DNA of 64,000 nt from Minisyncoccota bacterium (GCA_041664585.1 JBAYKL010000003.1:49074-113073), one strand, 5' to 3'; positions 1 through 55,946 are shown, counted from the first letter of the stretch. Program-made: numbers and translations. Notes: generated by a model not told the origin, from the letters alone.

Positions 1-357
1 CAATTATCTTTCTGTGATTATACGGATAGCGAACCAAATGGATGGTGTGCTGGTGTGTTGGATCATAGTATGAGTTTAAACAGCTGGCATTTTGTGGTTG
101 GAGTATTCCGTTCTGACTCCATTGAAGTATATATAGATGGTGTTTCTATTGGAAGTGGAGTAAAGGCTGGATTAACAACTAGACAAGCAGGTGCTGACCC
201 AGTTAACCTCACTATTGGTGGTAGATCAGTAGATACATATATTCAAAGATGGAGCGGTTTGATAGACGAAGTCGCTATTTGGGATCGTCCTATTTCTCCT
301 GTTGAAATTACCACTCTTTACAACGGTGGTGCTGGTATGAGTATAATTACACCTTAA
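1..357 (+). CDS. 3' fragment of a LamG/concanavalin-like lectin-fold domain protein (5' end outside window)
   Basis: Frame 1 is open from base 1 to TAA at 355-357. The residues VNLTIGG...LIDEVAIWDRPISPVEITTLYNGG resemble the C-terminal strands of laminin-G/concanavalin jelly-roll domains. Confidence 0.4.
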   Translation, partial: QLSFCDYTDSEPNGWCAGVLDHSMSLNSWHFVVGVFRSDSIEVYIDGVSIGSGVKAGLTTRQAGADPVNLTIGGRSVDTYIQRWSGLIDEVAIWDRPISPVEITTLYNGGAGMSIITP

Positions 358-3774: not shown

Positions 3775-6756
3775 ATGAAAAAAATTCTCTCTTTATTAAT
3801 TCTTTCTCTTATTATATTTCTTGGTATGCAGGTCCATGCTGCGCCAACTCTTGAAGAGATGGAAGAAATGTTTTCGGGATCTAAAGGGGTAGGTGTAGAT
3901 TGTTTTGATTATTACAAATTCCAAAGCGTTCAAGTAAACGTTGGACCAAACAAAAGTGCTTTCACTGCGGGGGAGGATGTAGATTTTTCTGGAAAGATTG
4001 AGAATGAAAATAGGTACCCAGTATTTAATGGATATTTATATGTAAGGATAGCAGAGAAGAACCCTGCGTATATTCATGAGGGTCATAATATTGTAGATGA
4101 GTTTATTGCTCTCGGGCCAATTTCAGTTGACGCATCTTCTTCTGCTCCAGTTTCTTTTTCTTGGAAGATACCAGAAAATCTAAAGTCTGGTGAATATACA
4201 GCGAATTATTTCTTTTCTGTGAATAAAAAGATGAACCTGGGTGGTCTTCCTTTTACTAACGAAATCATTGTGGGTTTTGCGGATTTCTCAATCGCTTCTA
4301 CAAAGACAGGTAATGTTTCTTTTGTAAAAAGTTCCACAAAAGTAAATGAAGCCAAATACAATCACATCGGTAACTGGCCCCTTATTTCTCCAGATGGCAA
4401 AGCTGTTGTGTCACAAGTAATTCAAAATACATTAAAGCAAGATATAAATACAGAAATTTCATATAATTTATATTATTGGGATAGCCTTGATCCTAAAGAT
4501 CTAATCTCTACAAAAAAAGAAAGTCTTACTCTAAAAGCAGGGGAAAGTAAAACTCTTACATATGAAATATCTAAGGTTGAACTCAGCGCGTATTATTTAC
4601 AAATAGTAGCCAAGAATGAAAATGGTACGAAATCTATTGTAAATATGAGAATTACGTCTGATATAGCCAAACCAAGAATTAACTATTTTGGATTAGATAA
4701 TTTTCCTATACAAAAAGGTGCCACAACCACGCTATATTCTTGTTTCCATAATACATCAAACATTTCTGCTTCTGGAACCACGGTGCTTATAGCAAAAGAC
4801 AAAGTAGGCAGAGAGATCTCAAGAGTGGAATACTCAGGAGTTATTCCTTCTGCTATCTCCGCACAAAAAACAGAGTTTATTGCTAATTCAAAATTGGATT
4901 ATATAAAACTTGAACAGAAAATTTATGATGACCAAAAAAATCTTTTAGATACTCAAGAGATTATCTATGATGTCTCTCTTATTAAAGAGCCGGAGATAAA
5001 AGCTGAACCAGTTAATCCCGTAGTAGCTTATGCGTTACTCGGACTCATAGTTTTTGGTTTCTTGCTATTTTTTGTAAAACCAATAAGAAAGAATAAGAAT
5101 TTGTGTTTAGTTATTTCTCTTGTAATTATTTCTTTAGCGGGTGCACTTCTTGTTTTGTTTATGCAAGCTAGACCGGTGAAAGCGCAATCAACGATAGAGA
5201 ATTTTCAGAAATCGCAGAGCGGGGTGGTAGAAAAAGTTTTTGGTGTCGGTTTTAATGGCAAACACGTAAACAATGTTTTTTATGGTTCCGTTAGTTATAC
5301 TTACAAAATAGACACAACCGCCTCTTCACCGATTGTTAGGAAGGGGGATAAAATTAGCTTCTCTTACTCATCACTGGGTTTCTTTAACGCAACTGGAGGG
5401 GGTTGGGATTCACCATATTTAGGAGAAAAATTTGTTCATAATTCTGGTTTGATTTCTAGTTTAGAGGCTGCAAAATGGATACCTGATGTAAGGATTGGAG
5501 AATTTAGAGGTTCTTTAAAGGACACATCCTGTGTTGGTACTCCAGTAGAAGGATGTATCGGTGGGGCACTTGGTCCAGACGGTAAGACCAATCAAACGTA
5601 CAAGGGCTATAATCCTGGACCTGGAGATTCAAGGCCTGGTTATAAAAAAGAAGTTGATATACCACAGCCGGATGTTACAAAATCAAGTGATGATAAAATT
5701 ATGAAATGTGATTCTTCTGGTTGTACAGCACTTTGTCCTGGTACCGTTATATTGACCACATCAATTAAACCATCAGAGGTTATCCTTGGGTATCAATATC
5801 CTTTCCCGATGTCTCTTTATAAGAGTGATCGCTCCGGCTTCAGAGACAGTATCCCTTTTGAAGGGTTTACGGCTAAATGGGTATTTAGAGTAACTGGTCC
5901 TAGTTGTGGGGGCGGTGGTAGTAGAGGGACTGGAGATATCAAAATGTGGGCAGATCCTTCTATTGTTGAATCTGGAGGCGAATCTATTATTAATTGGGAA
6001 ACCACAAATATGAGTTCCTGTCAGGCTGTTGGAGGATGGAGTTCATCGACAGCGATAGCTGGTGAGGAAAAGATGGAGAACATTATTGAGGGGAAAACCT
6101 TTGAAATATCTTGCAGTGGTATCAATGGTACCAAGTACGCTTCAACATCTGTTGGCCTTAGTTTAAAAAAACCTACAGTTCAGCTTTATGCCAACCCACA
6201 GTCTGTTGATCCTGACGGTAAGTCAGTTATCTCTTGGATTTCTGTAAACGCCCAATCTTGTCATGCTATACCAGTTATTGTTGGTACAAAAGAAACTTTT
6301 TGGACCAATTCCACGTCAACTTCCGGTTCTAAAGAGGTTTCTTTGGATAAAGTTGCAAAAACTTTCTCTATTTCTTGTGAGGGTAAGAATGGGATAAGTT
6401 ATTCTACAACCACGATAAATATTTTAAATCCAAAGGAGACAACGGAGGTTGTAACTGCCGCGTGTGTTCCCGAACAGAATTCCTCAAGTAAGATATATAT
6501 AAATAAACAAATGACTTGGAATGTCGTACCAGACGATGTTGACGTAGACTTGCCTTCTGCGAGCACGACATGGAGCGGAACGAACGTGTCAGAGACAGAA
6601 AGGGTTGGGGTGTCTTTAGATAAGATATATACTACTGTGGGCTTAAAGACTATAAATGCGACCACCACGTGGAAGACTGGTTCGACAAATTATATTACAA
6701 CCTGTTCAACTTCTACAAATGTAATGCTTGGAGGGGGGAGTATTAATGAGATATAG
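3775..6756 (+). CDS. large (993 aa) cell-surface protein: signal peptide, central double-TM hairpin, C-terminal Gly/Ser/Thr-rich region with tandem Cys-pair repeats
   Basis: N-terminal signal MKKILSLLILSLIIFLGMQVHA. Two hydrophobic helices near aa 410-465. Two roughly 90-aa tandem repeats (…SSCQAVGGW…EISCSGINGTKYASTS / …AQSCHAIPV…SISCEGKNGISYSTTT). Flanked by terminators on both sides. Confidence 0.6.
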   Translation: MKKILSLLILSLIIFLGMQVHAAPTLEEMEEMFSGSKGVGVDCFDYYKFQSVQVNVGPNKSAFTAGEDVDFSGKIENENRYPVFNGYLYVRIAEKNPAYIHEGHNIVDEFIALGPISVDASSSAPVSFSWKIPENLKSGEYTANYFFSVNKKMNLGGLPFTNEIIVGFADFSIASTKTGNVSFVKSSTKVNEAKYNHIGNWPLISPDGKAVVSQVIQNTLKQDINTEISYNLYYWDSLDPKDLISTKKESLTLKAGESKTLTYEISKVELSAYYLQIVAKNENGTKSIVNMRITSDIAKPRINYFGLDNFPIQKGATTTLYSCFHNTSNISASGTTVLIAKDKVGREISRVEYSGVIPSAISAQKTEFIANSKLDYIKLEQKIYDDQKNLLDTQEIIYDVSLIKEPEIKAEPVNPVVAYALLGLIVFGFLLFFVKPIRKNKNLCLVISLVIISLAGALLVLFMQARPVKAQSTIENFQKSQSGVVEKVFGVGFNGKHVNNVFYGSVSYTYKIDTTASSPIVRKGDKISFSYSSLGFFNATGGGWDSPYLGEKFVHNSGLISSLEAAKWIPDVRIGEFRGSLKDTSCVGTPVEGCIGGALGPDGKTNQTYKGYNPGPGDSRPGYKKEVDIPQPDVTKSSDDKIMKCDSSGCTALCPGTVILTTSIKPSEVILGYQYPFPMSLYKSDRSGFRDSIPFEGFTAKWVFRVTGPSCGGGGSRGTGDIKMWADPSIVESGGESIINWETTNMSSCQAVGGWSSSTAIAGEEKMENIIEGKTFEISCSGINGTKYASTSVGLSLKKPTVQLYANPQSVDPDGKSVISWISVNAQSCHAIPVIVGTKETFWTNSTSTSGSKEVSLDKVAKTFSISCEGKNGISYSTTTINILNPKETTEVVTAACVPEQNSSSKIYINKQMTWNVVPDDVDVDLPSASTTWSGTNVSETERVGVSLDKIYTTVGLKTINATTTWKTGSTNYITTCSTSTNVMLGGGSINEI

Positions 6757-13150: not shown

Positions 13151-13768
13151 ATGTCAGCATTAAATATATTATTTGGTAGCCAAGAGAGAGTAAAGATTAT
13201 GCGTCTTTTCCTATTCAATTCAGAAGAGGTTTTTGATTTGGATTTGATTTGTGAAAGGTCTAAAGTTTCTACCTCAAAAGTAAGGAGCGAGGTTAATGTT
13301 TTAGAAAAAGCTGGATTAGTAAAAAGAAGAGATTTTTCTAAAATAATTATAAAGAAGAATCACGGAAAGATTACAGAAAACAAAAAGAAATCTCATGGCT
13401 TTATTTTAAATACAGAGTTTACTTACATGTCTGCTCTCAAGCAGCTTTTGATGAATACTCAATCTCTTGATGGTGGGGATATAGTAAAAAGATTAGCTAA
13501 GGCTGGTAAATTAAAACTTGTTGTTGTTTCTGGTGTCTTTATCCAGGATCCACAAAGTAGAGTAGATATTTTGGTGGTGGGGGATAGGATAAGTAAGAAT
13601 GTATTAGATAAAACTATCAAAAACATTGAATCGGAGATTGGTAAGGAACTTACCTACGCATATTTTGAAGTGTTAGATTATCAATACAGGCTTCAAATGT
13701 ATGACAAACTTGTAAGAGATATTCTGGATTACCCACATGAGGTGTTATTAGACAAAATAAAGGCTTAA
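13151..13768 (+). CDS. hypothetical protein with a possible N-terminal winged-helix DNA-binding domain
   Basis: 205 aa; N-terminal stretch KIMRLFLFNSEEVFDLDLICERSKVSTSKVRSEVNVLEKAGLV resembles ArsR/MarR-type wHTH; the remainder is unassigned. Confidence 0.4.
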   Translation: MSALNILFGSQERVKIMRLFLFNSEEVFDLDLICERSKVSTSKVRSEVNVLEKAGLVKRRDFSKIIIKKNHGKITENKKKSHGFILNTEFTYMSALKQLLMNTQSLDGGDIVKRLAKAGKLKLVVVSGVFIQDPQSRVDILVVGDRISKNVLDKTIKNIESEIGKELTYAYFEVLDYQYRLQMYDKLVRDILDYPHEVLLDKIKA

Positions 13769-14898: not shown

Positions 14899-15339
14899 AT
14901 GAAAAAAGAGTATATACTTTACAGCTCATCTTTAGTCCTTGTATTAATTTCTGTTTTAAATTATCTAGGTGGTCAGTTTTATTGGTATTGGACTTACAGA
15001 TGGTTTGATATCCCTGTACACATGCTTGGAGGTGCTTGGATTGGACTTACAACTCTTTGGCTATGGGCACATTTTATGCATTTGAAAGTTATAAAAACTT
15101 TTCGTATGAAAGCTCTTGGGGTGGTAGTTTTTGCAATTTTTTTTGTAGGAATTTCTTGGGAGGTGTTTGAGCTTTTGGGAGGTATTACGGATATGACAGA
15201 TAGGGGATATTGGCCTGATACAATAGGGGATATAATAAATGATTCTATTGGTGGTATGTTTGCGTATTTTCTTTTTATAAAAACAAAGAAACCAGAGAAA
15301 GAACCAGCTGTTATTAGTGTTGGGAATAATATTAATTAA
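14899..15339 (+). CDS. VanZ-like small membrane protein
   Basis: 146 aa with four hydrophobic segments; the C-terminal DTIGDIINDSIGGMFAYFLF resembles the VanZ-family D..(I/L)(A/I)N..GG motif. Confidence 0.4.
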   Translation: MKKEYILYSSSLVLVLISVLNYLGGQFYWYWTYRWFDIPVHMLGGAWIGLTTLWLWAHFMHLKVIKTFRMKALGVVVFAIFFVGISWEVFELLGGITDMTDRGYWPDTIGDIINDSIGGMFAYFLFIKTKKPEKEPAVISVGNNIN

Positions 15340-15340
15340 A

Positions 15341-16699
15341 ATGAAATTAACTTTTTATGGAGGAACGGGTTCGGTAACTGGTGCTAATTTTTTAGTAGAA
15401 ACAGATAGCTTGAAGTTTGTTGTTGATTGCGGAATGATGCAGGGTTCAGATATCGCAGAGAGTTTTAATCGTGATCCATTTCCTTATGATCCTTCTACAT
15501 TGGGCTATCTCTTGGTCACTCATGCACATATAGACCACATAGGAAGAATTCGTAAATTAGTAAAAGATGGTTTTAATGGAAAGATAATCAGCACACCAGA
15601 GACGAAAGAAATTGCGGGCTTTCTTTTAGAAGACTCTCTTAGGATTATAGATGCTGATTCTAGAAAGAAAGGAGTCTTACCAATGTGGGAAAGGAAAGAT
15701 ATGGAGAAAGCCATGTCGCTTTGGCAGACGCTTGAATACCATACAGATTTTTCTTTAAACAGTGAAATATCTATTTATATGAAGGATTCTGGGCATATCT
15801 TGGGGTCTGCGATGATTGAGGTAAAGAGTAGTAAGGGCAAGATTGTATTTACTGGAGATCTTGGTAATTCGCCATCACTTTTGTTGAATGATACAGAAGA
15901 AATTACAGATGCAGATTATATCGTAATGGAGAGTGTATATGGAGACAGAAATCATGAACCAAAAGATGTAAGAAAAGAGAAATTAAAACAGGCTATTTTA
16001 GATACAATAAAAAATAAAAAAGTTCTTATTATTCCAGCATTTTCTCTTGAAAGAAGTCAGATGATTCTTTATGAGATGAATGATTTTTTTGAAAACGGAA
16101 TTATTCCTCAGATTCCTGTTTTTATGGATTCTCCTTTGGCGAGTAAAATTACAAAAGTATATGAAGAATCTAAGAACCTTAAACAGAGCGTACTAGATGA
16201 AATGAAAGCTGGGGATGATGTATTTAAATTTCCAAAACTTAAGTTTACAGTTAGAGCAGACGAATCAGAAAGAATCGATAATACTCCAAATCCTAAAATA
16301 ATTATTGCTGGTTCAGGTATGTCGACTGGTGGAAGAATTATTCATCATGAAAAGGACAATGTTGGGAACAAAGATGCAACGATTCTTCTTGTGGGATATC
16401 AGTCTATCGGTACTCTTGGTAGGAAACTTCAGGATGGATTAAAGGAGGTCCAGATTTACGGAGAAAATATTAAGGTGAAAGCTAGAGTGGATACGATTAC
16501 TGGGTATTCTTCGCATAAAGATTCAGATCACCTAACTGCTTTTGTGGAAAAAGCTGCAGAACAAGAAAAATTAAAGAAAGTATTTGTGGTAATGGGTGAG
16601 CCGAAGTCTTCGCTTTTCTTAGTTCAGCGTCTTAGAGATGATCTTAATGTTTCCGCTGTGAATCCGGAGTATAAACAAGAGGTGGAGATTAGTATTTAG
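15341..16699 (+). CDS. metallo-beta-lactamase / beta-CASP ribonuclease (RNase J-like)
   Basis: HAHIDHIG (HxHxDH) motif, GH...D metal ligands, C-terminal beta-CASP/RMMBL-like region (YSSHKDSDHL). ATG at 15341 lies two nt after the upstream stop. Confidence 0.7.
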   Translation: MKLTFYGGTGSVTGANFLVETDSLKFVVDCGMMQGSDIAESFNRDPFPYDPSTLGYLLVTHAHIDHIGRIRKLVKDGFNGKIISTPETKEIAGFLLEDSLRIIDADSRKKGVLPMWERKDMEKAMSLWQTLEYHTDFSLNSEISIYMKDSGHILGSAMIEVKSSKGKIVFTGDLGNSPSLLLNDTEEITDADYIVMESVYGDRNHEPKDVRKEKLKQAILDTIKNKKVLIIPAFSLERSQMILYEMNDFFENGIIPQIPVFMDSPLASKITKVYEESKNLKQSVLDEMKAGDDVFKFPKLKFTVRADESERIDNTPNPKIIIAGSGMSTGGRIIHHEKDNVGNKDATILLVGYQSIGTLGRKLQDGLKEVQIYGENIKVKARVDTITGYSSHKDSDHLTAFVEKAAEQEKLKKVFVVMGEPKSSLFLVQRLRDDLNVSAVNPEYKQEVEISI

Positions 16700-16750
16700 T
16701 ATATTGTATACAGTATATGGTATACAGAGCGTAAGGGAATAAACAAAGAC

Positions 16751-16790
16751 GGGGTTTGGGCATAGCCCAAACCCCGTCTTTGCTTTATCG
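16751..16790 (+). terminator. rho-independent terminator (first copy of a duplicated element)
   Basis: ggggtttggg-cata-gcccaaacccc hairpin followed by gtctttgcttt. Copy 2 at 21759 has a compensatory stem variant. Confidence 0.6.
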
Positions 16791-17290
16791 AAATGAACCA
16801 TGGTTCATTTCGGTATCTGTCTTTGCGAGCAAAGCGAAGCAAACCATCTCTGGATTGCTACGTCGGCAGACCTCCTAGCAAAGACAGGAAACCTGTTTCT
16901 TGTTTCTCTTAAGATCATATACTAAATACTTATACTGTATACTCACTAACGCTTATCCACACCCCCAAATCCATTGCATCCCACTCTCAAAAACTATGTA
17001 ATATACACATGTCACAGAAAATCTCTAAGTCTCTTTCTAAAATAAAGAAAATATCTATATACACAATATCTGCTTTCATTGTAGCTAAGCTCGTAGTATT
17101 TGCAGGCAATCTTATACCAGAAAGTACTCCAACCACTTCAACAATGGTTACGCTAGGTGATTTATATGAGAAAATCACAAATAACTCATATACCGCTTCT
17201 TCTCATCCAGTATCTACCACTACTTCACCAGCTTCTACATTCTCTACTCTAGAAAGCATATATAATGCTATACCTGACATATCTGGTAAT
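16751..17290 (+). repeat. copy 1 of an approximately 540-bp segmental duplication (terminator, 230-bp conserved leader, first about 90 codons of gene A)
   Basis: More than 90% identical to 21759-22297. Contains the perfect palindrome cgaaatgaacca|tggttcatttcg at 16789-16812. Confidence 0.85.
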
Positions 17291-17776
17291 GCGGCATCTA
17301 TCCTTTCAAATACCTCTATTATGGGAATACAGGGCACTCTTTCTATTCCTTCTGCTTCTCAGGTTGCTACAGGTACAGTATTTGGACCTAATGCTAATGG
17401 AGAAACTATTGGTACTCTTCCTGTCACCGCTCCTGTTCTTCCAGATACCATTAGTGCTTGGTCAGTAGCTAAGTCTACGGGTACTTGGGGTGGAGCTATT
17501 CTATTTTGTAATAATTTGGCAGAAGATGGTGCGAATTGGAGGTTGCCGAAAATAGCAGAACTAGCATTTGCTTTGGAAGAACAATTTAAAAGCAACCCTT
17601 CTTATGTAGATCATGATTTTGCATCGAACTCTGCTTATTGGTCAGGTGTTGAGTCCGATAATAATCCTACAAACGAGGCTTACTACGGTATTTATTATAC
17701 TGATATTAATTACAACCACGTGTACAGTTTTTCTGGCAGTAAGGGTCAAAGTTTTCTCATCCGCTGCGTCCACTAA
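17009..17776 (+). CDS. secreted/anchored DUF1566 (Lcl C-terminal domain)-like protein, paralog A1
   Basis: N-terminal hydrophobic anchor; Ser/Thr-rich linker; conserved W..A..FCNNL.E.G..WRLPK..EL ... YWSG ... RCVH motif block shared with 17788, 22016 and 22744. Confidence 0.6.
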   Translation: MSQKISKSLSKIKKISIYTISAFIVAKLVVFAGNLIPESTPTTSTMVTLGDLYEKITNNSYTASSHPVSTTTSPASTFSTLESIYNAIPDISGNAASILSNTSIMGIQGTLSIPSASQVATGTVFGPNANGETIGTLPVTAPVLPDTISAWSVAKSTGTWGGAILFCNNLAEDGANWRLPKIAELAFALEEQFKSNPSYVDHDFASNSAYWSGVESDNNPTNEAYYGIYYTDINYNHVYSFSGSKGQSFLIRCVH

Positions 17777-17787
17777 TTTTTATATCT

Positions 17788-18513
17788 ATGAAAAACAAAT
17801 TAAAATCATACATACCTAAAATACGCACAATATCTTTATATACGATATCTACTTTTATCGCAGCTAGACTTATAGCTTCAGCCGGTAACTTAGCTCCATC
17901 AGAAGCACCAGCCCCTACTATGGTGACCTTGGATCATTTGTTTAATAAAATTCAGGATAATTATTATTATTTTGGTGATGAACCAAAACTTTCTATTTCT
18001 ACATTATTATCTCCAGCAAACTCTATGCGTACATTGTTGGAAGTATATACTGCTATACCTAGTATCTCTCCAGATACTATTGCTACCGGTACTACTATTA
18101 TGGGCATACCGGGGAATGTGATTATACCGACGGCGAATACGGTGCAGTACGGAGTGCAGTTTGGGGATATGCCTTATAATTATCAAACAGGAACGATTAG
18201 CACGCCAACTAATATATGGTCAAATGCTTCAACAACAGCTAACTGGAATAACGCATTGGTTTTTTGTAATAATCTATCAGAAGGTGGACATGCTTGGAGG
18301 TTGCCGAAGGCGAACGAAATAGTTCAAGGTTTGTCAGAACCAGTTAATGGTTTCGGTCAATATGTGAATGTGTGGTCTGGTACAGATTATGGGGTAGACC
18401 CTTATGATGGCTATGACAAAGCTTTTTTAGGTTCAGTTTTTGCTAATTACACTGAAGCTTACAGCTGGACTGCTTATAAAAATTGGACATTTCATGTCCG
18501 TTGCACCAGATAG
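17788..18513 (+). CDS. secreted/anchored DUF1566-like protein, paralog B1 (Tyr/Asp-rich C-terminus)
   Basis: N-terminus MKNKLKSYIPKIRTISLYTISTFIAARL is 90% identical at DNA level to 22744. Motif LVFCNNLSEGGHAWRLPK. Confidence 0.6.
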   Translation: MKNKLKSYIPKIRTISLYTISTFIAARLIASAGNLAPSEAPAPTMVTLDHLFNKIQDNYYYFGDEPKLSISTLLSPANSMRTLLEVYTAIPSISPDTIATGTTIMGIPGNVIIPTANTVQYGVQFGDMPYNYQTGTISTPTNIWSNASTTANWNNALVFCNNLSEGGHAWRLPKANEIVQGLSEPVNGFGQYVNVWSGTDYGVDPYDGYDKAFLGSVFANYTEAYSWTAYKNWTFHVRCTR

Positions 18514-18647: not shown

Positions 18648-18866
18648 ATGAGAAAAATAAGAAGTCACAGACTTATTGTAAGTGGTATCGTTTACCGTTG
18701 TGTCGTAATTTTTTTTACAACACTGTTCTTCTGGCTCGGGGTTAAACCACTGGTCGATTCGTGTGGCCCATTTGGCGCTGCAGTTATCTGGGGGATTATA
18801 AATACGCTTATTTACTACGCATATCACTTTCTCTTTGCTAAGATGTTCAAATTGGGCAAAGATTAG
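18648..18866 (+). CDS. small membrane protein, DUF2061-like, immediately upstream of cysD
   Basis: 72 aa; ribosome-binding site AAGGGG before the ATG; two TM helices; ends ...NTLIYYAYHFLFAKM, resembling the DUF2061 YY.HE motif. Confidence 0.35.
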   Translation: MRKIRSHRLIVSGIVYRCVVIFFTTLFFWLGVKPLVDSCGPFGAAVIWGIINTLIYYAYHFLFAKMFKLGKD

Positions 18867-18874
18867 GCTGGTAC

Positions 18875-18909
18875 GACGCGATTCTTGAAAAGAATCGCGT
18901 CTTTTTTTT
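18875..18909 (+). terminator. hairpin plus T tract between the small membrane-protein gene and cysD (possible attenuator)
   Basis: gacgcgattctt-gaaa-agaatcgcgtc followed by TTTTTTTT. Confidence 0.55.
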
Positions 18910-18924
18910 AATGGATTTTATGTT

Positions 18925-19830
18925 ATGCTTTATTTTATGATAAAGCTGAATCATCTAGAGGTGCTTGAATCCGAAAGCATACATATTATAAGGGAAGCTG
19001 TGGCCACTTTCAAAAATCCAGTGATGATGTATTCAATTGGTAAAGATTCCTCAGTGCTATTACATCTAATGAGAAAGGCGTTTGCTCCTACTAAGATACC
19101 TATACCATTACTTCATGTTGATACCGGATATAAATTTAAAGAAATGATTGATTTTAGGAATAATATTGCAAAAGAGCTTTCTCTTAATCTTATTGTTCGT
19201 AAAAATGAATCAGAGCAGGCAAAATCTTTTAAACCAGAAGAGGCCAATACAGACGAATATATATATCACAAAAAAACAAAGGCTCTTTTAGATGCAATTA
19301 AAGAATTTAATTTTGATGCTGCTTTTGGTGGTGGTAGACGCGACGAAGAAAAATCAAGAGCTAAAGAAAGGATTTTTTCTTTTAGGGATGTAAACAATGT
19401 CTGGAATCCTAAAAAACAGAGACCTGAGCTTTGGAATTTGTATAATACAAAAATAAAACAAGGGGAAACCATGAGGATTTTTCCACTATCAAATTGGACA
19501 GAGCTAGATATTTGGACTTATATAAAACAAGAAAATATTTCTATTGTGCCTTTGTATTTTGCACAAAAAAGAAAAATGCTAAAAAGAAATGGGGTGTTTA
19601 TAAGAGTAGACGAATTTAATATACCAAAAGAAGGGGAAGAGATATTTGAAGATTGGAGTAGATTCAGAACTCTGGGCTGTTCTCCTTCAACAGGTGCTAT
19701 TATTTCTAAAGCTGGTAATCTAGATGAAATTATTGAAGAAATACGTTTGACTCGTTTTTCTGAAAGACAGACAAGAGCAATAGACAACGGTTCAAGTATG
19801 GAAAGTAAAAAGAAACAGGGGTATTTTTAA
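18925..19830 (+). CDS. cysD: sulfate adenylyltransferase subunit 2 (CysD/NodP family)
   Basis: Near-collinear with E. coli CysD: [70 protein letters not shown]. Confidence 0.9.
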
Positions 19831-19841
19831 AAAAATATATT

Positions 19842-21095
19842 ATGGAAAATAAAGAATTTGTTATTGTTGCAACTTCGGGGAGTGTGGATGATGGAAAATC
19901 TACTCTACTAGGGCGTCTTTTGTATGATTGTGATTCTATTTATCAAGATGTTTTGAAAACTCTCAAGAAAGATTATGAATCAGAAGACGTGGTGGTAGAT
20001 AATCTCGCTTATGTTACAGACGGTCTGGAAGCTGAAAGGGAACAGGGTATTACTATTGATGTGGCTTACAAACATTTTTCTCGTACTCACAGAAAATTTT
20101 TGTTGGTAGATGTTCCTGGGCACGAGCAATATACAAGAAATATGATCACCGGAGTGTCTCGTGCAGATGCTGTGGTTATTATGATAGATATGAATTTGGG
20201 TGTTTCAATACAATCCAAGAGACATTTTTTCATTGCCTCAATGTTGGGGGTAAAAAATATTATTTTTGCATTGAACAAAATGGACCTTATGGGTTTTAAG
20301 CAAGAAATTTTTGAAAAAGTAAAAAGCGAATTGGAAGATTATTCTACAAAGCTTAATGTATCTAATTGTATTTTTATCCCTATGTCTGCTAAGTATGGAG
20401 ATATGGTAGTAGCCCGTGGAGAAAGAATGAATTGGTATGAGGGGCCAACACTACTCAGTGTTTTAGAAACATTTTCTTTTTCTGAAGATTTGGGCAGTGA
20501 AGATTTTAGGTTGCCAGTTCAGTGTGTATTAAATGATTCTAATTTTAGGGGTTATGCAGGTAAGGTTGAGGCTGGAGTATTAAATGTTGGCGATAAAGTC
20601 ACAATTGTGCCTTCTGGAAAAAAGACTAGTATAAAAGAGATATATATAGGTTTTGATAAAGTGGAGACGGCTTCAAAGGGCCAATCTATAGCAGTGTCTG
20701 TAAATGATAAACTAGATATTAGTCGCGGGGATATAATAATTGGGGCAGATAATTCTATAGTTCAGTCGAATAATTTGGATGTAATTTTGTTCTGGTTTGA
20801 TGAGAAGTCCTTAAAAGAGGGAAGAGATATTATTTTGAAAAATAACACTAAAGATGTTCGTGGTACCGTTCAGAATATTGAGTACTCTATTGATATGAAT
20901 ACCACACAAAAAATTGAAAAAGTAGGTATTTTGAATCAAAATGATGTGGGTAAGGCTAGTATAAAATTAAACTCTGACATATTTTTTGATACTTACGCAA
21001 AGAATAAAAATATGGGAAGTTTTATTCTGATAGACGATATTACTTATGATACTATTGGAGCGGGTATTATTTTAGGTAAAAAAGATGAAAAATAA
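19842..21095 (+). CDS. cysN: sulfate adenylyltransferase subunit 1, GTPase (CysN/NodQ N-terminal part)
   Basis: SGSVDDGKSTLLGRLL, DVPGHEQY, NKMD GTPase motifs; beta-barrel domains follow. Confidence 0.85.
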   Translation: MENKEFVIVATSGSVDDGKSTLLGRLLYDCDSIYQDVLKTLKKDYESEDVVVDNLAYVTDGLEAEREQGITIDVAYKHFSRTHRKFLLVDVPGHEQYTRNMITGVSRADAVVIMIDMNLGVSIQSKRHFFIASMLGVKNIIFALNKMDLMGFKQEIFEKVKSELEDYSTKLNVSNCIFIPMSAKYGDMVVARGERMNWYEGPTLLSVLETFSFSEDLGSEDFRLPVQCVLNDSNFRGYAGKVEAGVLNVGDKVTIVPSGKKTSIKEIYIGFDKVETASKGQSIAVSVNDKLDISRGDIIIGADNSIVQSNNLDVILFWFDEKSLKEGRDIILKNNTKDVRGTVQNIEYSIDMNTTQKIEKVGILNQNDVGKASIKLNSDIFFDTYAKNKNMGSFILIDDITYDTIGAGIILGKKDEK

Positions 21096-21648
21096 AATTA
21101 AAAAAAACAGCAAAAAAATTAAGAAAAAGAGTGGAGCAGTTCTTTGGCTCACTGGTCTTTCTGGTTCTGGCAAAAGCACGATAGGGGATTCTCTTCATGA
21201 AATTTTGAATAAAAAAGGTATTTCAGCACAAAGGCTCGATGGAGATATTTTAAGAGAGCATTTTGAAAATAAACTAGGTTTTAATAAAGAAGGCAGAGAT
21301 TTGAATATTAAAATATCTGCCTTTACTAGCTCTCTTTTAGAAAAACATGGGGTCATCGTCATTTCTTCTTTTATAAGTCCATATAAACACCAGAGAGATT
21401 TCGCGCGTAATCTTTCTAAAAAATTTATAGAGATACATGTAAATGCTTCTGTTGAGACATGTATCAAAAGGGATACAAAAGGACTCTATAAAAAAGCTCT
21501 CGCAGGAGAGATTAAAAATTTTACTGGTATTTCAGATCCGTATGAAGTTCCAGAAAATCCGCATCTTGTGATTGATACCGATATTTTGAATATCAAAGAT
21601 TCTGTAAAAAAAGTTTTAGATTATTTAACAAAAGAGGGGATAATCTAA
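21085..21648 (+). CDS. cysC: adenylyl-sulfate (APS) kinase
   Basis: VLWLTGLSGSGKSTIG P-loop and the LDGD motif of APS kinase; overlaps the cysN stop by 11 nt. Confidence 0.85.
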   Translation: MKNKIKKNSKKIKKKSGAVLWLTGLSGSGKSTIGDSLHEILNKKGISAQRLDGDILREHFENKLGFNKEGRDLNIKISAFTSSLLEKHGVIVISSFISPYKHQRDFARNLSKKFIEIHVNASVETCIKRDTKGLYKKALAGEIKNFTGISDPYEVPENPHLVIDTDILNIKDSVKKVLDYLTKEGII

Positions 21649-21758
21649 GAAGGGGTCGAGGTGAGACCTTGCCTGCCCGTCTTGCCTGCTTTAGGCTGGC
21701 TCAGGAGGGAATCTTCAAAAAGGTCTCTCCTCGACTACGAAAATTCTAAAAACACAGA

Positions 21759-21796
21759 GGGGTTTCGCTCCGCGAAACCCCGTCTTTGCTTTATCA
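21759..21796 (+). terminator. rho-independent terminator (second copy; stem differs from copy 1 by compensatory changes)
   Basis: ggggtttcgc-tcc-gcgaaacccc then gtctttgcttt. Confidence 0.6.
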
Positions 21797-22297
21797 AAAT
21801 GAACCATGGTTCATTTCGGTATCTGTCTTTGCGAGCAAAGCGAAGCAAACCATCTCTGGATTGCCACGTCGGCAGACCTCCTAGCAAAGACAGAAAACCT
21901 GTTTCTTGTTTTCTCTTAAGATCATATACTAAATACTTATATTGTATACTCACTAACACTTATCCACACCCCAAAATCCATTGCATCTCACTTTCAAAAA
22001 CTATATAATATACACATGTCACAGAAAATCTCTAAGTATTTTTCTAAAATAAAGAAAATATCCATATACACCATATCTACTTTCATTGTAGCTAAGCTTG
22101 TAGTATTTGCAGGTACTCTTATGCCAGACAGTACCCCAACCACATCAACAATGGTTACATTAGGTGACTTATATGAGAAAATTACAAATAATTCATACAC
22201 AACTTCTTCTCACCCAGTATCTACTACTACCTCACCAGCTTCTACATTTTCTACTCTGGAAAGCATATATGATGCTATACCGGATATAGCTAGGCAG
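21759..22297 (+). repeat. copy 2 of the approximately 540-bp segmental duplication
   Basis: More than 90% identical to 16751-17290; palindrome aaatgaaccatggttcattt at 21796-21815. Confidence 0.85.
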
Positions 22298-22732
22298 GCG
22301 AACTTGATAGATTCAACACATTCTCTTATGGGTGTACAAGGTGCTCTATACATTCCTACAATAAATCAAGTGGCTTCAGGTACACACTTTGGTCCCAATG
22401 GAAGTTTGGTAGGGACACTTTCTGCTGCTGCGGTGGCCTCGGATGAAATTAGTGCTTGGTCAGTAGCTAAATCTTCAGGTACATGGAGTGAAGCCATTCT
22501 GTTTTGTAATAATCTATCAGAAGGTGGACATGCTTGGAGGTTGCCGAAGAGGGCAGAGCTAGAGGGGCTAGTTAATAGTCCATTTTCATCATATACAATT
22601 TATTGGTCAGGTACAGAGGGTTTTATCAATCCCACTCATGCTTATGGCATCTATAGCTACGACTCAGGTTTTTCCGTCAATGCATATAATTATATGAAGA
22701 CGGACGTTCTTGGTGTTGGTTGCGTCCACTAA
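22016..22732 (+). CDS. DUF1566-like protein, paralog A2
   Basis: First 90 aa nearly identical to A1. C-terminal motif block includes a 48-nt stretch identical to B1 (ttttgtaataatctatcagaaggtggacatgcttggaggttgccgaag). Confidence 0.6.
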   Translation: MSQKISKYFSKIKKISIYTISTFIVAKLVVFAGTLMPDSTPTTSTMVTLGDLYEKITNNSYTTSSHPVSTTTSPASTFSTLESIYDAIPDIARQANLIDSTHSLMGVQGALYIPTINQVASGTHFGPNGSLVGTLSAAAVASDEISAWSVAKSSGTWSEAILFCNNLSEGGHAWRLPKRAELEGLVNSPFSSYTIYWSGTEGFINPTHAYGIYSYDSGFSVNAYNYMKTDVLGVGCVH

Positions 22733-22743
22733 TCTACACATCT

Positions 22744-23499
22744 ATGAAAAACAAATTAAAATCATACATACCTAAAATCCGCACAATATCTTTATATACG
22801 ATATCTACTTTTATCGCAGCTAGACTTATAGCTTCAGCTGGTAACCTAGCACCTACAGAAGCTCCAACTCCTACCATGGTAACATTGGACCATCTGTTTA
22901 ATAAAATTCAGAATAATACTTATTCTACAAGTACAGATGAAAAGTTGTCTATTTCAACACTACTATCTCCAGCAAACTCTATGCGCACCTTGCTGGAAGT
23001 ATATACTGCTATACCTAGTATTTCTCCAGATATTATTGCCACTGGTACCACTATTATGGGTATACCTGGGAATGTGGTGATGCCAGATGCAGCGAATGTT
23101 GCTAATGGGGTTGGATTTGGTCCTAGTAATTTTTATGACGATGGCTATGGTGGATTTTATTTTAGTGGTTATCCTTTTGTTGGTGAATTTAAAACATCTC
23201 ATCAGATATGGTCAAACGCTACAGGTAGCGGAAATTGGAATGATGCTATTTTGTTCTGTAATAATTTATCAGAAGGCGGGCATGCTTGGAGGTTGCCTAA
23301 GGATGGTGACTGGGGAGCCATGCACGAACCTTCTTTTCCAGGTAGATATTTTTGGTCTGGTACTGAAGTGAGTGCTGAATACGCTAGAGCATTCGGGATA
23401 TTTGATAGTGGCCAGGGATACTATTATGCTGCTCCATACTCAGATCAGTCGGATAAAGCTGCTGGCTACGGCGTTCGTTGTATAACTAAAACATTGTAA
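22744..23499 (+). CDS. DUF1566-like protein, paralog B2 (Tyr/Asp/Gly-rich C-terminus)
   Basis: ATG at 22744 gives MKNKLKSYIPKIRT..., matching the B1 start; the ORF-track start at 22720 is rejected. Motif ILFCNNLSEGGHAWRLPK. Confidence 0.6.
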   Translation: MKNKLKSYIPKIRTISLYTISTFIAARLIASAGNLAPTEAPTPTMVTLDHLFNKIQNNTYSTSTDEKLSISTLLSPANSMRTLLEVYTAIPSISPDIIATGTTIMGIPGNVVMPDAANVANGVGFGPSNFYDDGYGGFYFSGYPFVGEFKTSHQIWSNATGSGNWNDAILFCNNLSEGGHAWRLPKDGDWGAMHEPSFPGRYFWSGTEVSAEYARAFGIFDSGQGYYYAAPYSDQSDKAAGYGVRCITKTL

Positions 23500-23579: not shown

Positions 23580-24428
23580 TTATTCTAAAGTTGTATTTAA
23601 TTTTAATTCTCTTTTTGTCCAAAAGTTTAAATGCTCATATTTTTTTGCAGCAGCCTCTCCTATAAGTATGGGCCATTTTGGTAGTACCGGTGTAATTACA
23701 GCCCTTATCGTATGTAAGTCATCAAATCCGTGGTATTCATCTTTCTCAAATACGACTTGTTTTACATTATTGAAGTCATGTTTATATCTAGGAATCTCTA
23801 GAAAATCATATATTTTATTCATAACTTTTTCAGGACTATGAGTAAAAGATTCAAAGTCTACAAAAAGCATTTGCTTGGCATAGCCTTTGTGTACAGCATC
23901 ACGCATTTGATTGTATGCGCTACCCACAACTTCTTTTGAGTCCATAAATACTTCAAGTCTGCCTTCAATAGTATTAAATTTATCTGGGTTTCCCATTTCT
24001 TGTGGTATTGCTCTGTGTCCTGTATTTTTTCTCCACAAAGATTCAAAGCTGGCCAAGACTTCTCTGATATCTCTCACCGTTACAAGTAATTTAACAGGAT
24101 GACCAAGGATTTCTTCTGCCATTTCTATATTTCCACACCAACCACGAGATTTATCTACACAATATTTTTTGTCTGTATTTGAAAAGTAGCCCTCAAACAT
24201 CCCGCGCATTATTCTAATAGAAGACACTTTGTCATCTATGTGGTCGGAAGCTTTTATGGAAGGCATCTGACTCCACATGTTTTTTGTATTTCTCATAAGA
24301 CCTATAATGCTACTTGTAGGGGTGACATAGAAATCTGGGTTTTGAGATAGGACATTACAAAGTAGGGTGGAGCCAGAGCGGGGAAGTCCTGATAGGAAGA
24401 AGTATTCTCTTGTTTTTTTATCGTTCAT
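23580..24428 (-). CDS. PAPS-dependent sulfotransferase (Sulfotransfer_3 / Stf0-NodH-RaxST-like)
   Basis: 5'-PSB motif LPRSGSTLL near the N-terminus and a 3'-PB-like motif VTVRDIREVLAS; 282 aa. Confidence 0.65.
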   Translation of the reverse strand: MNDKKTREYFFLSGLPRSGSTLLCNVLSQNPDFYVTPTSSIIGLMRNTKNMWSQMPSIKASDHIDDKVSSIRIMRGMFEGYFSNTDKKYCVDKSRGWCGNIEMAEEILGHPVKLLVTVRDIREVLASFESLWRKNTGHRAIPQEMGNPDKFNTIEGRLEVFMDSKEVVGSAYNQMRDAVHKGYAKQMLFVDFESFTHSPEKVMNKIYDFLEIPRYKHDFNNVKQVVFEKDEYHGFDDLHTIRAVITPVLPKWPILIGEAAAKKYEHLNFWTKRELKLNTTLE

Positions 24429-38686: not shown

Positions 38687-39220
38687 ATGGGTTTAATAGA
38701 AACAAAAGAAAAAGGTTTTACTCTGATAGAGCTTTTGGTAGTAATAGCTATAATTGCAATGCTGAGCTCTGTTGTTATGGCCGGTTTTAGTGATACTAAA
38801 CAGAAGGGTAGAGATGCTGCTAGAGTAAGGGCCTTACAGGAGGTGAGAAGCGCTTTGCAACTTTATGCTACTGATAAGGGAGGGTTTCCTCCGGGTACCA
38901 ATATATTAGGATCTTCTAATTTATTAACTGAACTTGCGGTAAACAATAAATACATAGCGTCTGTTGATTCTAGTCTAAGATATAGCGGAGTAAATTCCGA
39001 TGGAACTTATTGTAATCCGTCAGTATATACAGTGTGCTCTGGGTACCATATTGGAATAGCCCTAGAAAGAAGAGACAGTGGTGTTTTAGTGAATGACAGT
39101 AACTCAATTCTGCCAACTGGTAGTGGTCCAGGCACAGCGGTGATAGGAACAAATGATACTTGTGGGCCTGCTGGTGTAGTCGGAGGCACCCCAGTATTGT
39201 GCTATGATATTTTACAGTAA
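38687..39220 (+). CDS. type IV pilin-like protein (class III signal KG|FTLIELLVVIAII)
   Basis: Prepilin cleavage motif G|FTLIEL with Glu at +5; hydrophobic N-terminal helix; C-terminal Cys pair. Confidence 0.8.
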   Translation: MGLIETKEKGFTLIELLVVIAIIAMLSSVVMAGFSDTKQKGRDAARVRALQEVRSALQLYATDKGGFPPGTNILGSSNLLTELAVNNKYIASVDSSLRYSGVNSDGTYCNPSVYTVCSGYHIGIALERRDSGVLVNDSNSILPTGSGPGTAVIGTNDTCGPAGVVGGTPVLCYDILQ

Positions 39221-39224
39221 TTTC

Positions 39225-39782
39225 ATGTTTTATAATAAAAGAAAGAATGGTTTTACTCTAATAGAGCTTTTAGTTGTTATATCTATAATCGGCCTACTCT
39301 CCACAGTCATCTTGGCTAGTCTAACGAGCGCAAGGAAAAAGGCTCAAGCTACAAAATTTGTTGCTGATATGAATCAACTCAAAACAGCTTTTGAATTGTA
39401 TAGGAATGACAATGGTCAGTATCCTTTTGAAGATAGACAAATAGGTACTGAAGCCGACGAGATATCACATCTCTCTTTGACAACCAATTTACCGGGCGCT
39501 AGTGGGAAGGGTCTTAATGATGAATTAGTCACGAATAAATACATAAGTTCTATTCCTAATATTTCTCAGTGTCCAACTGTATGTGATTTGAGAGTCACAG
39601 TAACTCCAGAGGATTATGGTTATATTACAAAAAAAGAATTACTCGGTGGTACCGATACCTCTTATCATTGTGGTGGTGTTATTTTTAAAAATTATTTATT
39701 TTATGTCGGTAATAATCAGATAAGTCCGAATTATCCGCACCTTGGTGGGGGCTACGACAATTATTATTGTTTTGGTCAGTAA
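39225..39782 (+). CDS. type IV pilin-like protein (paralog of 40826 and 41378)
   Basis: MFYNKRKNG|FTLIELLVVISIIGLL; start at 39225 chosen over 39204 because it lies after the upstream stop; ends ...YYCFGQ. Confidence 0.8.
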   Translation: MFYNKRKNGFTLIELLVVISIIGLLSTVILASLTSARKKAQATKFVADMNQLKTAFELYRNDNGQYPFEDRQIGTEADEISHLSLTTNLPGASGKGLNDELVTNKYISSIPNISQCPTVCDLRVTVTPEDYGYITKKELLGGTDTSYHCGGVIFKNYLFYVGNNQISPNYPHLGGGYDNYYCFGQ

Positions 39783-39821
39783 TATGTTTAGTTTTCCAAA
39801 AATTAGTTTATAATACATTGT

Positions 39822-40475
39822 ATGTCCGTAGAGTTCGACCAGAAAAATATGTTTTTGAAAAAAAGTAAAGGTTTCACCCTCATAGAACTTCTAGTGGTTA
39901 TTTCAATAATTGGTTTGTTATCTACTGTAGTCATGGCTGGTATGCAAACCGCTAGGCAAAGAGCAAAGAATTCTTATGTAACTGCTTCAATAAAATCTTA
40001 CATAACTGCATTAAAGGGTTATTATGCAGATCATGGAGGGTACCCAGCTAATTATGGAGACGGTTGTGAGTGGGCGGCATATTATTATATTGGATTAGGA
40101 AAAACAGACTATCAAGCATTAGGGGGACATTTTTGCTCGTATATTGATTCGAATTACTTTTTAGACCAACTTTCGCCGTACCTTTCTTCTCTGGATGATC
40201 CTAGTCCGTATGAGAATCCAAAGCCTTATAATGATATCCATAACGTTATCTATTGGAACAGGAAGGGCGCAGGATTTGTTTGCGAAGATAAACAAACAAA
40301 CCTTTACTGTTCTAAGGGTAAAATTGTTTGGGTTATTGATACAACTATAGATAAAAATGTTAATTGTGGGGATGTGGGTGGTGGAAGTAATTCTATGCCG
40401 GCTGAAGATTTACAAAATATTTTTGGTATGGATTTGAAAAATTACGTTTATCACTACTGTTATTTAAATATTTAG
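39822..40475 (+). CDS. type IV pilin-like protein with a long leader (MSVEFDQKNMFLKKSKG|FTLIEL)
   Basis: Prepilin motif. The N-terminal MSVEFDQKN is conserved at protein level with gene 40491, so the 39822 start is probably used; the alternative start is 39849. Confidence 0.7.
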   Translation: MSVEFDQKNMFLKKSKGFTLIELLVVISIIGLLSTVVMAGMQTARQRAKNSYVTASIKSYITALKGYYADHGGYPANYGDGCEWAAYYYIGLGKTDYQALGGHFCSYIDSNYFLDQLSPYLSSLDDPSPYENPKPYNDIHNVIYWNRKGAGFVCEDKQTNLYCSKGKIVWVIDTTIDKNVNCGDVGGGSNSMPAEDLQNIFGMDLKNYVYHYCYLNI

Positions 40476-40490
40476 TGATATAATAATTTT

Positions 40491-40826
40491 ATGTCTATCG
40501 AATTTGATCAAGAAAATAGTTTTAATAAAACTTTTAGCAAAGCCTATTCAAAAAGTGGTGATTCTAAGATAGTCGCATATCTTATTAAAAAGAGGTTTGC
40601 CAAGAATGAAAAACAAGCAAATATGATTTTGCTTGGTATTGCTGTCTTGTGTATTTTATTAACTCTTTCTATTATTAAAACTACAGTCTATCCTGCATCG
40701 GCACCAGTATCACAAAGGACTCGAGAGATTTCTCAAACGATGTCAGAGTACAGAAAAGCCGGTTTACCGTTATCAGAAATAAGAAAAAGGATTGCTGAGG
40801 ATATTCAGTCTGGAAAGATAAAGTAA
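40491..40826 (+). CDS. small membrane protein sharing the MS(V/I)EFDQ(K/E)N N-terminus with the upstream pilin
   Basis: 111 aa, one TM helix, no G|F cleavage motif. Confidence 0.5.
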   Translation: MSIEFDQENSFNKTFSKAYSKSGDSKIVAYLIKKRFAKNEKQANMILLGIAVLCILLTLSIIKTTVYPASAPVSQRTREISQTMSEYRKAGLPLSEIRKRIAEDIQSGKIK

Positions 40827-41371: not shown

Positions 41372-41377
41372 TTATTT

Positions 41378-49896: not shown

Positions 49897-49907
49897 AAAA
49901 GATTTTA

Positions 49908-49948
49908 AAAATACCTCTGAATCTTATAAGATTCAGAGGTATTTTTTG
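49908..49948 (+). terminator. rho-independent terminator after pilC
   Basis: aaaatacctctgaatc-ttataag-attcagaggtatttttt. Confidence 0.7.
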
Positions 49949-55943: not shown

Positions 55944-55946
55944 TAT

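Follow-up and report, generated by a model that had tools for sequence, protein, structure and literature searches.

Our analyses show that an uncultured Candidatus Paceibacterota (CPR) MAG contains a two-gene surface-lectin cassette (genes A and B) in duplicate, with the same hairpin-rich non-coding block lying 5' of each copy. A minus-strand sRNA gene is most likely what this block represents, although this is not provable from sequence alone. Tentatively, and with a confidence that stays short of even, we propose that the block would be a divergently transcribed, structured sRNA gene of ~165-170 nt that ends at a bidirectional terminator. According to this proposal, the A genes would be transcribed from a -10 box located 4-6 nt before their ATG, yielding leaderless mRNAs, and the part of the block that comprises the terminator (T), a palindromic hairpin (P), a stem-loop (L) and a small helix (S), 130-170 nt in length, would lie outside the A transcript. 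Divergent transcription of the sRNA would begin in the AT-rich region adjoining the A promoter and stop at T, used jointly with the convergent upstream gene, P being the penultimate stem-loop of the RNA and not an operator. As part of the duplicated unit, the sRNA gene would have been copied along with A and B, its near-identity being kept by selection, by gene conversion, or by both. Minus-strand transcription, the RNA ends and any function are features that we infer.

This reading is ranked first because of the excess of conservation in the block, its structure, its G+C content, the strand pattern of its differences, its boundaries and its non-leader layout. It is tempered by a weak promoter match, by the small number of changes (four in two copies), by gene conversion and by the lack of an Rfam family. 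A more far-reaching version, which we regard as rather doubtful, would make the block a cassette-linked, undescribed Paceibacterota sRNA whose apical hairpin AAAUGAACCAUGGUUCAUUU and terminator form a module common to distinct CPR genomes, and which would regulate, or be co-regulated with, a host-attachment lectin and PAPS-sulfation island. The link of the block to this lectin/sulfation island is only a guess.

The duplicated cassette and its mosaic divergence

Each duplicated unit consists of a ~270 bp non-coding block followed by gene A and gene B. In the window, that is, the whole 64-kb stretch of DNA analysed, the first unit carries A1 (17009..17776, plus strand, 255 aa) and its paralogue B1 (17788..18513, plus strand, 241 aa), and the second A2 (22016..22732, plus strand, 238 aa) and B2 (22744..23499, plus strand, about 251 aa). 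The ATG at 22744 aligns with the start of B1; the listed ORF for B2 starts earlier, at a TTG at 22720. The four proteins have a common plan, in which the N-terminus bears a membrane anchor, the C-terminus a Lcl_C/DUF1566 lectin-like domain, and ~100 residues form a conserved module. A small membrane-protein ORF and cysD-like, cysN-like and cysC genes lie between the two units, and a sulfotransferase gene is found 3' of copy B on the opposite strand. The same locus is present on a 292-kb JGI contig and on a 96-kb ENA contig, which are mutually identical here and differ from the window at 2 positions. The source sites are JGI 3300037810 and ENA ERZ27249449, and the NCBI locus tags of the MAG begin with WC229_. 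On contig Ga0376277_0000294, position x of the window falls at 193638 + x, which puts the two blocks at about 210376-210646 and 215383-215653.

The initial annotation had reported a duplication more than 90% identical that included ~230 bp of non-coding DNA. This is borne out by the alignment of 16751-17290 with 21759-22297, in which 489 of 541 positions are identical (90.4%), and by that of the 233-nt non-coding part (16776-17008 against 21782-22015), with 224 of 234 (95.7%). The stretch described is thus real, but the true repeat is larger, since homology spans the whole A-B cassette (~16741-18513 against 21748-23499). Outside the duplicated unit the flanks are unrelated (21-24% identity), and the start of the homologous unit coincides exactly with the far side of T. 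The hairpin-rich core of the block (16776-16905) is identical between copies at 127 of 130 positions, with 3 substitutions and one indel, and the remaining, promoter-bearing non-coding part at 97 of 104 (7 differences). In the adjoining A codons 1-92, pS reaches 0.30 (dS 0.38, dN 0.044), and Fisher tests against the synonymous sites of these codons gave p = 4.5e-8 for the core and p = 1.6e-4 for the remaining non-coding part, the divergence of the block being lower by a factor of 4-13 than that of nearby synonymous sites. These divergence tests, together with the folding analyses given below, support the earlier claim of a conserved, structured upstream block, with conservation that is unusually high and structure that is strong.

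Divergence changes abruptly along the unit. Successive segments have pS values of 0.30, >0.63, 0.12, 0.44 and 0.72; B codons 1-35, which are 96-100% identical between copies, account for the value of 0.12 and B codons 36-110 for that of 0.44, and the C-terminal halves of A and B both exceed 0.6. Synonymous sites are saturated in the C-terminal lectin-like domains, with dS of at least 1.4. This mosaic synonymous divergence implies that gene conversion operates between the copies, and its combination with unrelated flanks is that of a segmental duplication with gene conversion. A young conversion tract alone could account for the low divergence of the block without selection, and the two processes are not separable here from the sequences at hand.

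Two mechanisms that might have produced or diversified the copies were discarded. For a MITE or an invertible promoter, the 12-nt inverted match GTATACAGTATA/TATACTGTATAC flanks copy A only, its left motif being missing in copy B, and no direct target duplications were seen at the two copies. For a DGR, neither a reverse transcriptase nor a template repeat was found near the cassettes, and the 97-nt repeat family D5 corresponds to the conserved Lcl_C core.

Promoters, terminators and stem-loops of the block

Almost none of the 55 genes in the window has a Shine-Dalgarno motif, and 23 of them have a -10-like hexamer ending 4-14 nt 5' of the start codon, the distances peaking sharply at 6-7 nt, against 9 and 5 genes in control windows further upstream. 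Most of the start-proximal -10 hexamers of this genome have a TGn extension and no clear -35. The scarcity of Shine-Dalgarno motifs and the start-proximal -10 boxes are a signature of leaderless mRNAs, and most mRNAs in this genome appear to be of this kind. The probable core promoter of A1 (16974..17008, plus strand) comprises TTGCAT (16974-16979), a 17-nt spacer, and either TGTAAT (16997-17002) or TAATAT (16999-17004), followed by the ATG at 17009; that of A2 (21981..22015, plus strand) reads TTGCAT-17-TATAAT and is separated by 6 nt from the ATG at 22016. The TAATAT hexamer also occurs 5' of the tRNA and tmRNA genes of this genome. Further upstream in copy A, a C-rich spacer (16950-16995) is preceded by an AT-rich region (16909..16945) that contains back-to-back promoter-like sites, TTAAGA-16-TATACT on the plus strand and TATACA-16-TATGAT on the minus strand, as well as the box TATACTGTATAC (16931-16942). 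The plus-strand site offers an alternative promoter, TG-TATACT (16936-16943), whose -10 lies ~66 nt before the ATG and whose leader would not exceed about 60 nt. A promoter scan detected no promoter-like site between T and P.

From the position of these predicted promoters, at most the last 0-60 nt of the block would probably be transcribed with A. Because the A genes follow the leaderless pattern of the genome, P would fall outside any A leader. It is located 150-200 bp 5' of the likely A transcription start and ~200 bp from the A start codon, and the predicted promoters do not place it between start and ATG, where a cis-regulator of the 5' UTR would be. The designation of the block as a leader in the initial annotation is consequently not supported, the -10 boxes of the A genes ending 4-6 nt before the ATG and P lying ~200 bp upstream of the start. 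Other elements that it had described are all present, namely a perfect 20-24 bp palindrome in both copies, far above chance expectation, the inverted repeat CTTTGC-GAG-CAAAG, the AT-rich TATACT region, and terminator stems with compensatory changes, in which both arms differ between the copies and pairing is kept.

These stems belong to T, which combines a GC-rich stem, a short loop and U-rich runs, as expected for a bidirectional Rho-independent terminator. In copy A (16741..16785, both strands), an 11-bp GC-rich stem (16751-16775; GGGGTTTGGGC-ATA-GCCCAAACCCC) is extended by AAAGAC/GTCTTT and accompanied by T-rich runs on both strands, the repeat having 21-nt arms that are 95% complementary. 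In copy B (21748..21791, both strands), the stem (21759-21781) reads GGGGTTTCGC-TCC-GCGAAACCCC and is flagged as a terminator on both strands. It is the inner 3-4 stem pairs that differ between copies. T would also serve the convergent upstream gene. A U-rich tail in the minus direction is present in both copies; terminators in this genome are as a rule symmetric, however, and this tail is therefore weak evidence for a minus-strand gene.

The palindromic hairpin P extends over 16786..16815 in copy A, where its perfect core measures 24 nt (16789-16812; CGAAATGAACCATGGTTCATTTCG) and has the centre GAAC-N4-GTTC, and over 21792..21821 in copy B, with a perfect core of 20 nt (21797-21816). The 20-mer AAATGAACCATGGTTCATTT has exactly two matches in the 64-kb window (16791-16810 and 21797-21816), for 0.01 expected by chance, and no additional site was found there when up to 3 mismatches were allowed. 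Perfect palindromes that lack a loop and have arms of 10 nt or more number three in the window, namely the two copies of P and one at 49907-49946, for a mean of 0.14 in shuffled sequences. The shorter dyad GAACCATGGTTC (GAAC-N4-GTTC) is found in the window only at 16795-16806 and 21801-21812, and GAAC-N4-GTTC has at least two matches in 16% of the shuffles. Over about 82 kb (the window and ~18 kb of flanks), P has no other site with up to 3-4 mismatches, and the ~18 kb beyond the window ends contain no other copy of P, of L, of the hairpin family H1 or of clusters of the 8-mer GTCTTTGC. Each block has three occurrences of this 8-mer, which amounts to six of the eight in the window.

Next to P, stem-loop L (16817..16887 in copy A) is closed by a 10-bp helix, CTGTCTTTGC/GCAAAGACAG, around an inner hairpin GCAA-A-CCA-TCTC-TGG-A-TTGC, and contains an AGGAGG tract on the minus strand. 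It is followed by the small helix S (16888..16906, GAAAC/GTTTC); in copy B, the folding comparison places L and S together at 21823..21913. The block folds much better than shuffled sequences, with z-scores of -7.2 for the plus strand and -8.4 for the minus strand, which still amount to -3.2 to -4.7 when the terminator is removed. Its best 80-nt window has a G+C content of 0.51, peaking in L, against 0.31 for intergenic DNA overall; for comparison, the values are 0.50 for the tmRNA and 0.53-0.56 for the tRNA genes.

The predicted fold of the minus strand is alike in both copies and consists of S, L with its inner hairpin, P and then T. All four inter-copy differences are tolerated or compensated in this fold, as far as two sequences can tell. 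On the minus strand, an A-U pair becomes G-U at 16846 (inner helix of L) and a G-C pair becomes G-U at 16789 (P), and the substitution at 16875 forms a compensatory pair with the extra base. This last change affects S, where the copies differ by one base change and a one-base insertion that jointly add a base pair, and where consensus columns 6/24 are GC in one copy and AU in the other, both sides having changed. On the plus strand, by contrast, two of the three substitutions become A.C mismatches, left unpaired in the consensus fold, and the single-sequence folds differ between copies. The minus strand is better folded by 6.6-7.5 kcal/mol in copy B, and equal or better by 3.4 in copy A. One outer pair of P favours the plus strand, being T.G on the plus and C.A on the minus strand, and two transitions would favour the same strand by chance with a probability of ~0.25. 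The strand evidence from these modelled folds points to the minus strand, as a lean from two sequences and not as proof. The "regulatory RNA hairpin" that the initial annotation had offered as an alternative to an operator is thus viable, with the evidence pointing to the opposite strand.

The candidate sRNA would be encoded on the minus strand at 16738..16908 in copy A and at 21745..21915 in copy B, extending over ~165-170 nt from the promoter-like site, by way of S, L and P, as far as T with its U-run. The promoter-like site, TATACA-16-TATGAT (16941-16914), is present in both copies, matches a promoter at 9 of 12 positions and has no TGn extension. Set against the features of an sRNA gene, the block has a terminator, a promoter-like sequence (9/12) and, in two sequences only, four of four differences that are structure-neutral or compensatory. 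Conserved small ORFs were dismissed as the content of the block, as the ends of the 39-codon plus-strand and 20-codon minus-strand frames are shifted by the indel and a substitution, and they have no promoter. Prediction of sRNA targets with RNAduplex returned only meaningless long-range duplexes and was set aside.

Occurrence in other genomes and alternative readings

The cassette has few close relatives. A alone has no homologue except A2 in a 5.8-billion-protein index, and searching with an A/B profile contributed no more than B1, B2 and a single 1.2-kb fragment that has no upstream region; in GTDB species genomes, a scan guided by the proteins yielded no confirmed locus for relatives of A/B. 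The N-terminal module, by contrast, is widespread, and a full HMMER scan for it retrieved 496 representatives at E <= 0.001, including 130 at E <= 1e-10, with varied C-terminal domains. Upstream regions could be compared at five distinct homologue loci (L041, L042, L043/44, L045 and L047/48; 30-50% identity, not strict orthologues), the genome of the first being syntenic with the source genome on the left flank. Their 95-340 nt of upstream sequence contain neither the palindrome nor any similarity to the block, and have a TATAAT 20-35 nt before the ATG. The initial annotation had proposed an operator upstream of DUF1566-like genes and had itself counted absence of the palindrome from orthologous leaders against the idea; what we find comes close to this, the loci being homologues and not strict orthologues.

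Among 185,579 GTDB species genomes, the exact 20-mer occurs at two loci only. One, inside a Porphyromonadaceae contig, was judged to be a chance match, ~0.5 matches being expected by our estimate. The other lies at the junction of two contigs in the MAG Loclat_bin-14315 (uncultured bacterium; CAIPUJ01), as part of a perfect 50-nt palindrome that has in common with the window the extended core TACC(G)AAATGAACCATGGTTCATTT(C)GGTA. Exactly 18 nt separate this palindrome from a GGGGTTTGCC...GGCAAACCCC terminator, so that the AAACCCC-N18-TGAACC spacing of the window recurs, a coincidence for which we estimate a chance of ~1e-4. Its neighbouring genes are unrelated to the cassette, no U-run follows it, and no matching promoter stands out on the minus strand. 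The source genome and the Loclat MAG also have in common a second family of hairpins, H1. In metagenomes, 34 matches to an 18-mer were rejected as relatives, since they range from 28 to 72% G+C, have no common context and compare with ~30 expected by a rough estimate. On the contig with 72% G+C, two copies of the palindrome flank a TTGACA 5' of a divergent TetR-family gene, of which they are evidently the operator; this shows what such a palindrome is capable of, not its role in the window. Searches of viral contigs, phage records and plasmid records with the palindrome, the L segment, H1 and the whole block gave no match, and the L/S part has no homologue in any of the collections searched (metagenome contigs, viral, phage and plasmid sequences, and homologue upstream regions). 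An Rfam 15 scan of the whole window at gathering thresholds retrieved only the tmRNA and tRNAs, and a permissive scan of 16600-17100 only hairpin-level matches far below threshold.

Several alternatives can be weighed against a minus-strand sRNA gene. The block might be a stack of hairpins acting on the plus strand or at the DNA level (terminators, insulators or REP-like elements), which would shield the A promoter from read-through and would have been homogenised by gene conversion. On the plus strand, the scan does pick out terminator-like hairpins in P (13 pairs, tail TCTGTCTTTG) and in the S region (tail CTTGTTTCTC), and a co-directional gene pair in Loclat is separated by the same succession of terminator, palindrome, further hairpins, promoter and gene. 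H1 attests to dispersed intergenic hairpins in these lineages, and the mosaic pS to conversion tracts. However, the A.C mismatches produced on the plus strand by two of the three substitutions, with a plus fold that differs between copies, fit poorly with such a stack, as do the lack of a U-run after P in Loclat and the restriction of P, unlike REP families, to the two cassette copies in about 82 kb. A conversion tract would moreover need to stop by coincidence near the start codon, and we consider this reading possible though improbable. It is unlikely, to a slightly greater degree, that the block has no specific function beyond those of a terminator and a promoter, being intergenic DNA co-duplicated within a young or recurrent conversion tract. 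The range of pS along the unit, from 0.12 to >0.7, would allow for this, and the first 35 codons of B reached near-identity with no need of an RNA element; the divergence of the non-coding block differs only marginally from that of the synonymous sites at the B start (p = 0.054). Yet such inert DNA would not be expected to have a G+C content of 0.51 against 0.31 for intergenic sequence, a perfect palindrome that chance would produce 0.01-0.14 times, a 10-bp long-range helix, GTCTTTGC three times per block and folding z-scores well below those of shuffles, nor would its T and P module be expected to recur in another genome.

The palindrome could also be the operator of a dimeric regulator acting on both cassettes, with a LexA/Cheo box or the site of a TetR or winged-helix repressor as candidates. 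Its perfect 20-24 bp dyad with a GAAC-N4-GTTC centre has the right form, its core is conserved as sequence, beyond pairing, in two genomes with differing flanks, which also fits a protein-binding DNA site, and the unrelated TetR-associated metagenome contig provides a precedent. A weak candidate, a winged-helix-like protein of 205 aa, is encoded 3 kb upstream (13151-13768; E = 0.004-0.005, below curated cut-offs). Nevertheless, the site is ~200 bp away from the probable A start, ~100 nt inside the candidate minus-strand transcript, and overlaps no promoter; it has no counterpart in about 82 kb at up to 3-4 mismatches and is missing upstream of homologous genes elsewhere. The Loclat palindrome, at 50 nt, far exceeds the length of an operator, and surface lectins are not SOS genes, all of which makes a role as operator quite unlikely. 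Finally, a plus-strand 5' leader, riboswitch or attenuator of A-B could be imagined in which the three GTCTTTGC/GCAAAGAC segments form alternative helices, given that 16776-16784 or 16817-16826 may pair, in a mutually exclusive manner, with 16878-16887 and that the scan reveals terminator-like plus-strand hairpins. We hold this to be very improbable, as the interval from T to the structured part contains no promoter, the -10 boxes adjoin the ATG as they do genome-wide, no Rfam family matches, the element is missing from the upstream regions of homologues and the plus-strand fold is not kept between copies.

Significance and comparison with known systems

CPR/Patescibacteria are believed to live in attachment to host cells, and the regulation of their surface proteins is poorly understood. 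A narrow literature search found no described small or regulatory RNAs from CPR, and the sRNA proposed here, if real, would to our knowledge represent one of the earliest candidate families of regulatory RNA defined for these bacteria. As a gene that accompanies a lectin-like adhesin cassette beside a sulfation island, it would make CPR gene regulation accessible to concrete tests and could seed a new RNA family. If, on the contrary, the block contains only converted stacked hairpins, the locus would be one of ordinary paralogous surface-protein cassettes, and its main value would be that "leaders" in this genome are not leaders, most mRNAs appearing to be leaderless.

As in trans-encoded sRNA genes, the block has ~170 nt, several stem-loops, a GC-rich hairpin with a U-run at the 3' end, a location between a convergent gene and a divergent promoter, and a G+C content above the intergenic background. 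Unlike them, it is known from sequence alone, belongs to no Rfam family, has a weak promoter match and finds its only relative in the partial terminator and palindrome module of one MAG. The Gram-positive-type LexA (Cheo) box is CGAAC-N4-GTTCG, and the centre of P, GAAC-CATG-GTTC, has this dyad, which makes a LexA link for P, by analogy, a candidate; P differs from such boxes in that it overlaps no promoter, has lectin-like and sulfation genes and not SOS genes as neighbours, and has no other copy in about 82 kb. With REP/BIME repeats, the locus has in common intergenic imperfect palindromes that follow terminators and, in H1, a family found in two genomes, but P occurs only twice in about 82 kb, both times within the duplication and not dispersed, and no RAYT-like gene was seen. 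The resemblance to paralogous surface-protein cassettes includes a near-identical upstream region and N-terminal anchor, saturated C-terminal domains and mosaic identity, with the difference that there are only two copies, both looking expressed, and that Pfam searches of part of the window revealed no silent donors, invertase or DGR reverse transcriptase nearby. By analogy with these systems, the locus may work like paralogous surface-protein cassettes with a conserved 5' region and divergent binding domains, to which a candidate sRNA is added.

Short elements of the upstream blocks and their counterparts elsewhere

Exact copies of the motif TATAYKGTATAC number five in the window, and every one is at the upstream blocks of the two duplicated lectin-like cassettes: three overlapping copies lie to the left of the copy A terminator (16700-16725), and each AT-rich region holds one more (16931-16942 and 21938-21949). 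When one mismatch is allowed, the window contains 7 matches against 1.5 expected. The motif could be bound by a protein, or could simply reflect the -10-like boxes.

The window genome also has in common with the metagenome-assembled genome Loclat_bin-14315 (locus L002) a second hairpin family, GGTCGAGGTG-RR-ACCTT ... AAGGT-YY-CTCCTCGAC, represented at 21654-21737 of the window and at positions 66-115 (plus strand) and 3868-3913 (minus strand) of L002. It keeps a T.T mismatch and shows two compensatory pairs, and all three cases are in sense orientation with respect to the flanking genes.

The sequence of the perfect palindrome found in both upstream blocks recurs in an unrelated metagenome contig of 72% G+C (L029), where two AAATGAACC(A/C)TGGTTCATTT copies stand on either side of a TTGACA (1697-1750), upstream of a TetR-family gene that is divergently transcribed. 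This paired site is probably a TetR operator whose sequence is the same as that of the window palindrome.

Transcription signals, pilin-like genes and a candidate intron

Across the whole window, Shine-Dalgarno sites are almost entirely absent, and many start codons have an extended -10 box (TGnTATAAT) whose last base lies 6-7 nt before the codon, a spacing by which leaderless mRNAs would seem to be the rule in this genome. The region separating a 401-aa gene from a pilin-like gene holds a 40-nt perfect palindrome (49907-49946) with the halves AAAAATACCTCTGAATCTTA and TAAGATTCAGAGGTATTTTT, which resembles a symmetric terminator. Type IV pilin-like paralogues carrying the N_methyl motif are clustered at 38687-41920 and 50151-50561 and explain two repeat families, D1 and D2; more pilin-like genes, together with a prepilin peptidase, occupy approximately 53813-56537. 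A group I intron (Rfam RF00028) at 62618-62839, detected only in a permissive scan at 51.3 bits where the gathering score is 50, immediately follows a LAGLIDADG-like ORF (61941-62618) and lies shortly downstream of two tRNA-Met genes.

Genomic settings of the lectin-like genes

The N-terminal module of the A and B proteins defines a widespread family, with 496 representatives, whose C-terminal domains vary. One genome carries an A-like pair within the ribosomal-protein operon, between L5 and S14 (L042, 3232-4333). In another (L041), which is syntenic with the window genome, Sua5 and RNase H have an A-like gene inserted between them (4001-4669), whereas the window genome has no A-like gene at that place.

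Upstream of copy A, positions 15317-16699 encode a beta-CASP/metallo-beta-lactamase protein that scores 402 bits with the NCBIfam model of the type VII CRISPR protein Cas14, far under its 800-bit cut-off, and 266 bits with the archaeal aCPSF1. Most likely this protein is a beta-CASP ribonuclease of general function. The two lectin-like cassettes have a PAPS-synthesis set between them at 18648-21648 (a small membrane ORF, cysD-like, cysN-like and cysC genes), and a sulfotransferase gene follows copy B at 23580-24428. This proximity suggests that, together, they constitute a surface sulfation-plus-lectin island. In Legionella, the C-terminal domain of Lcl binds sulfated glycans.
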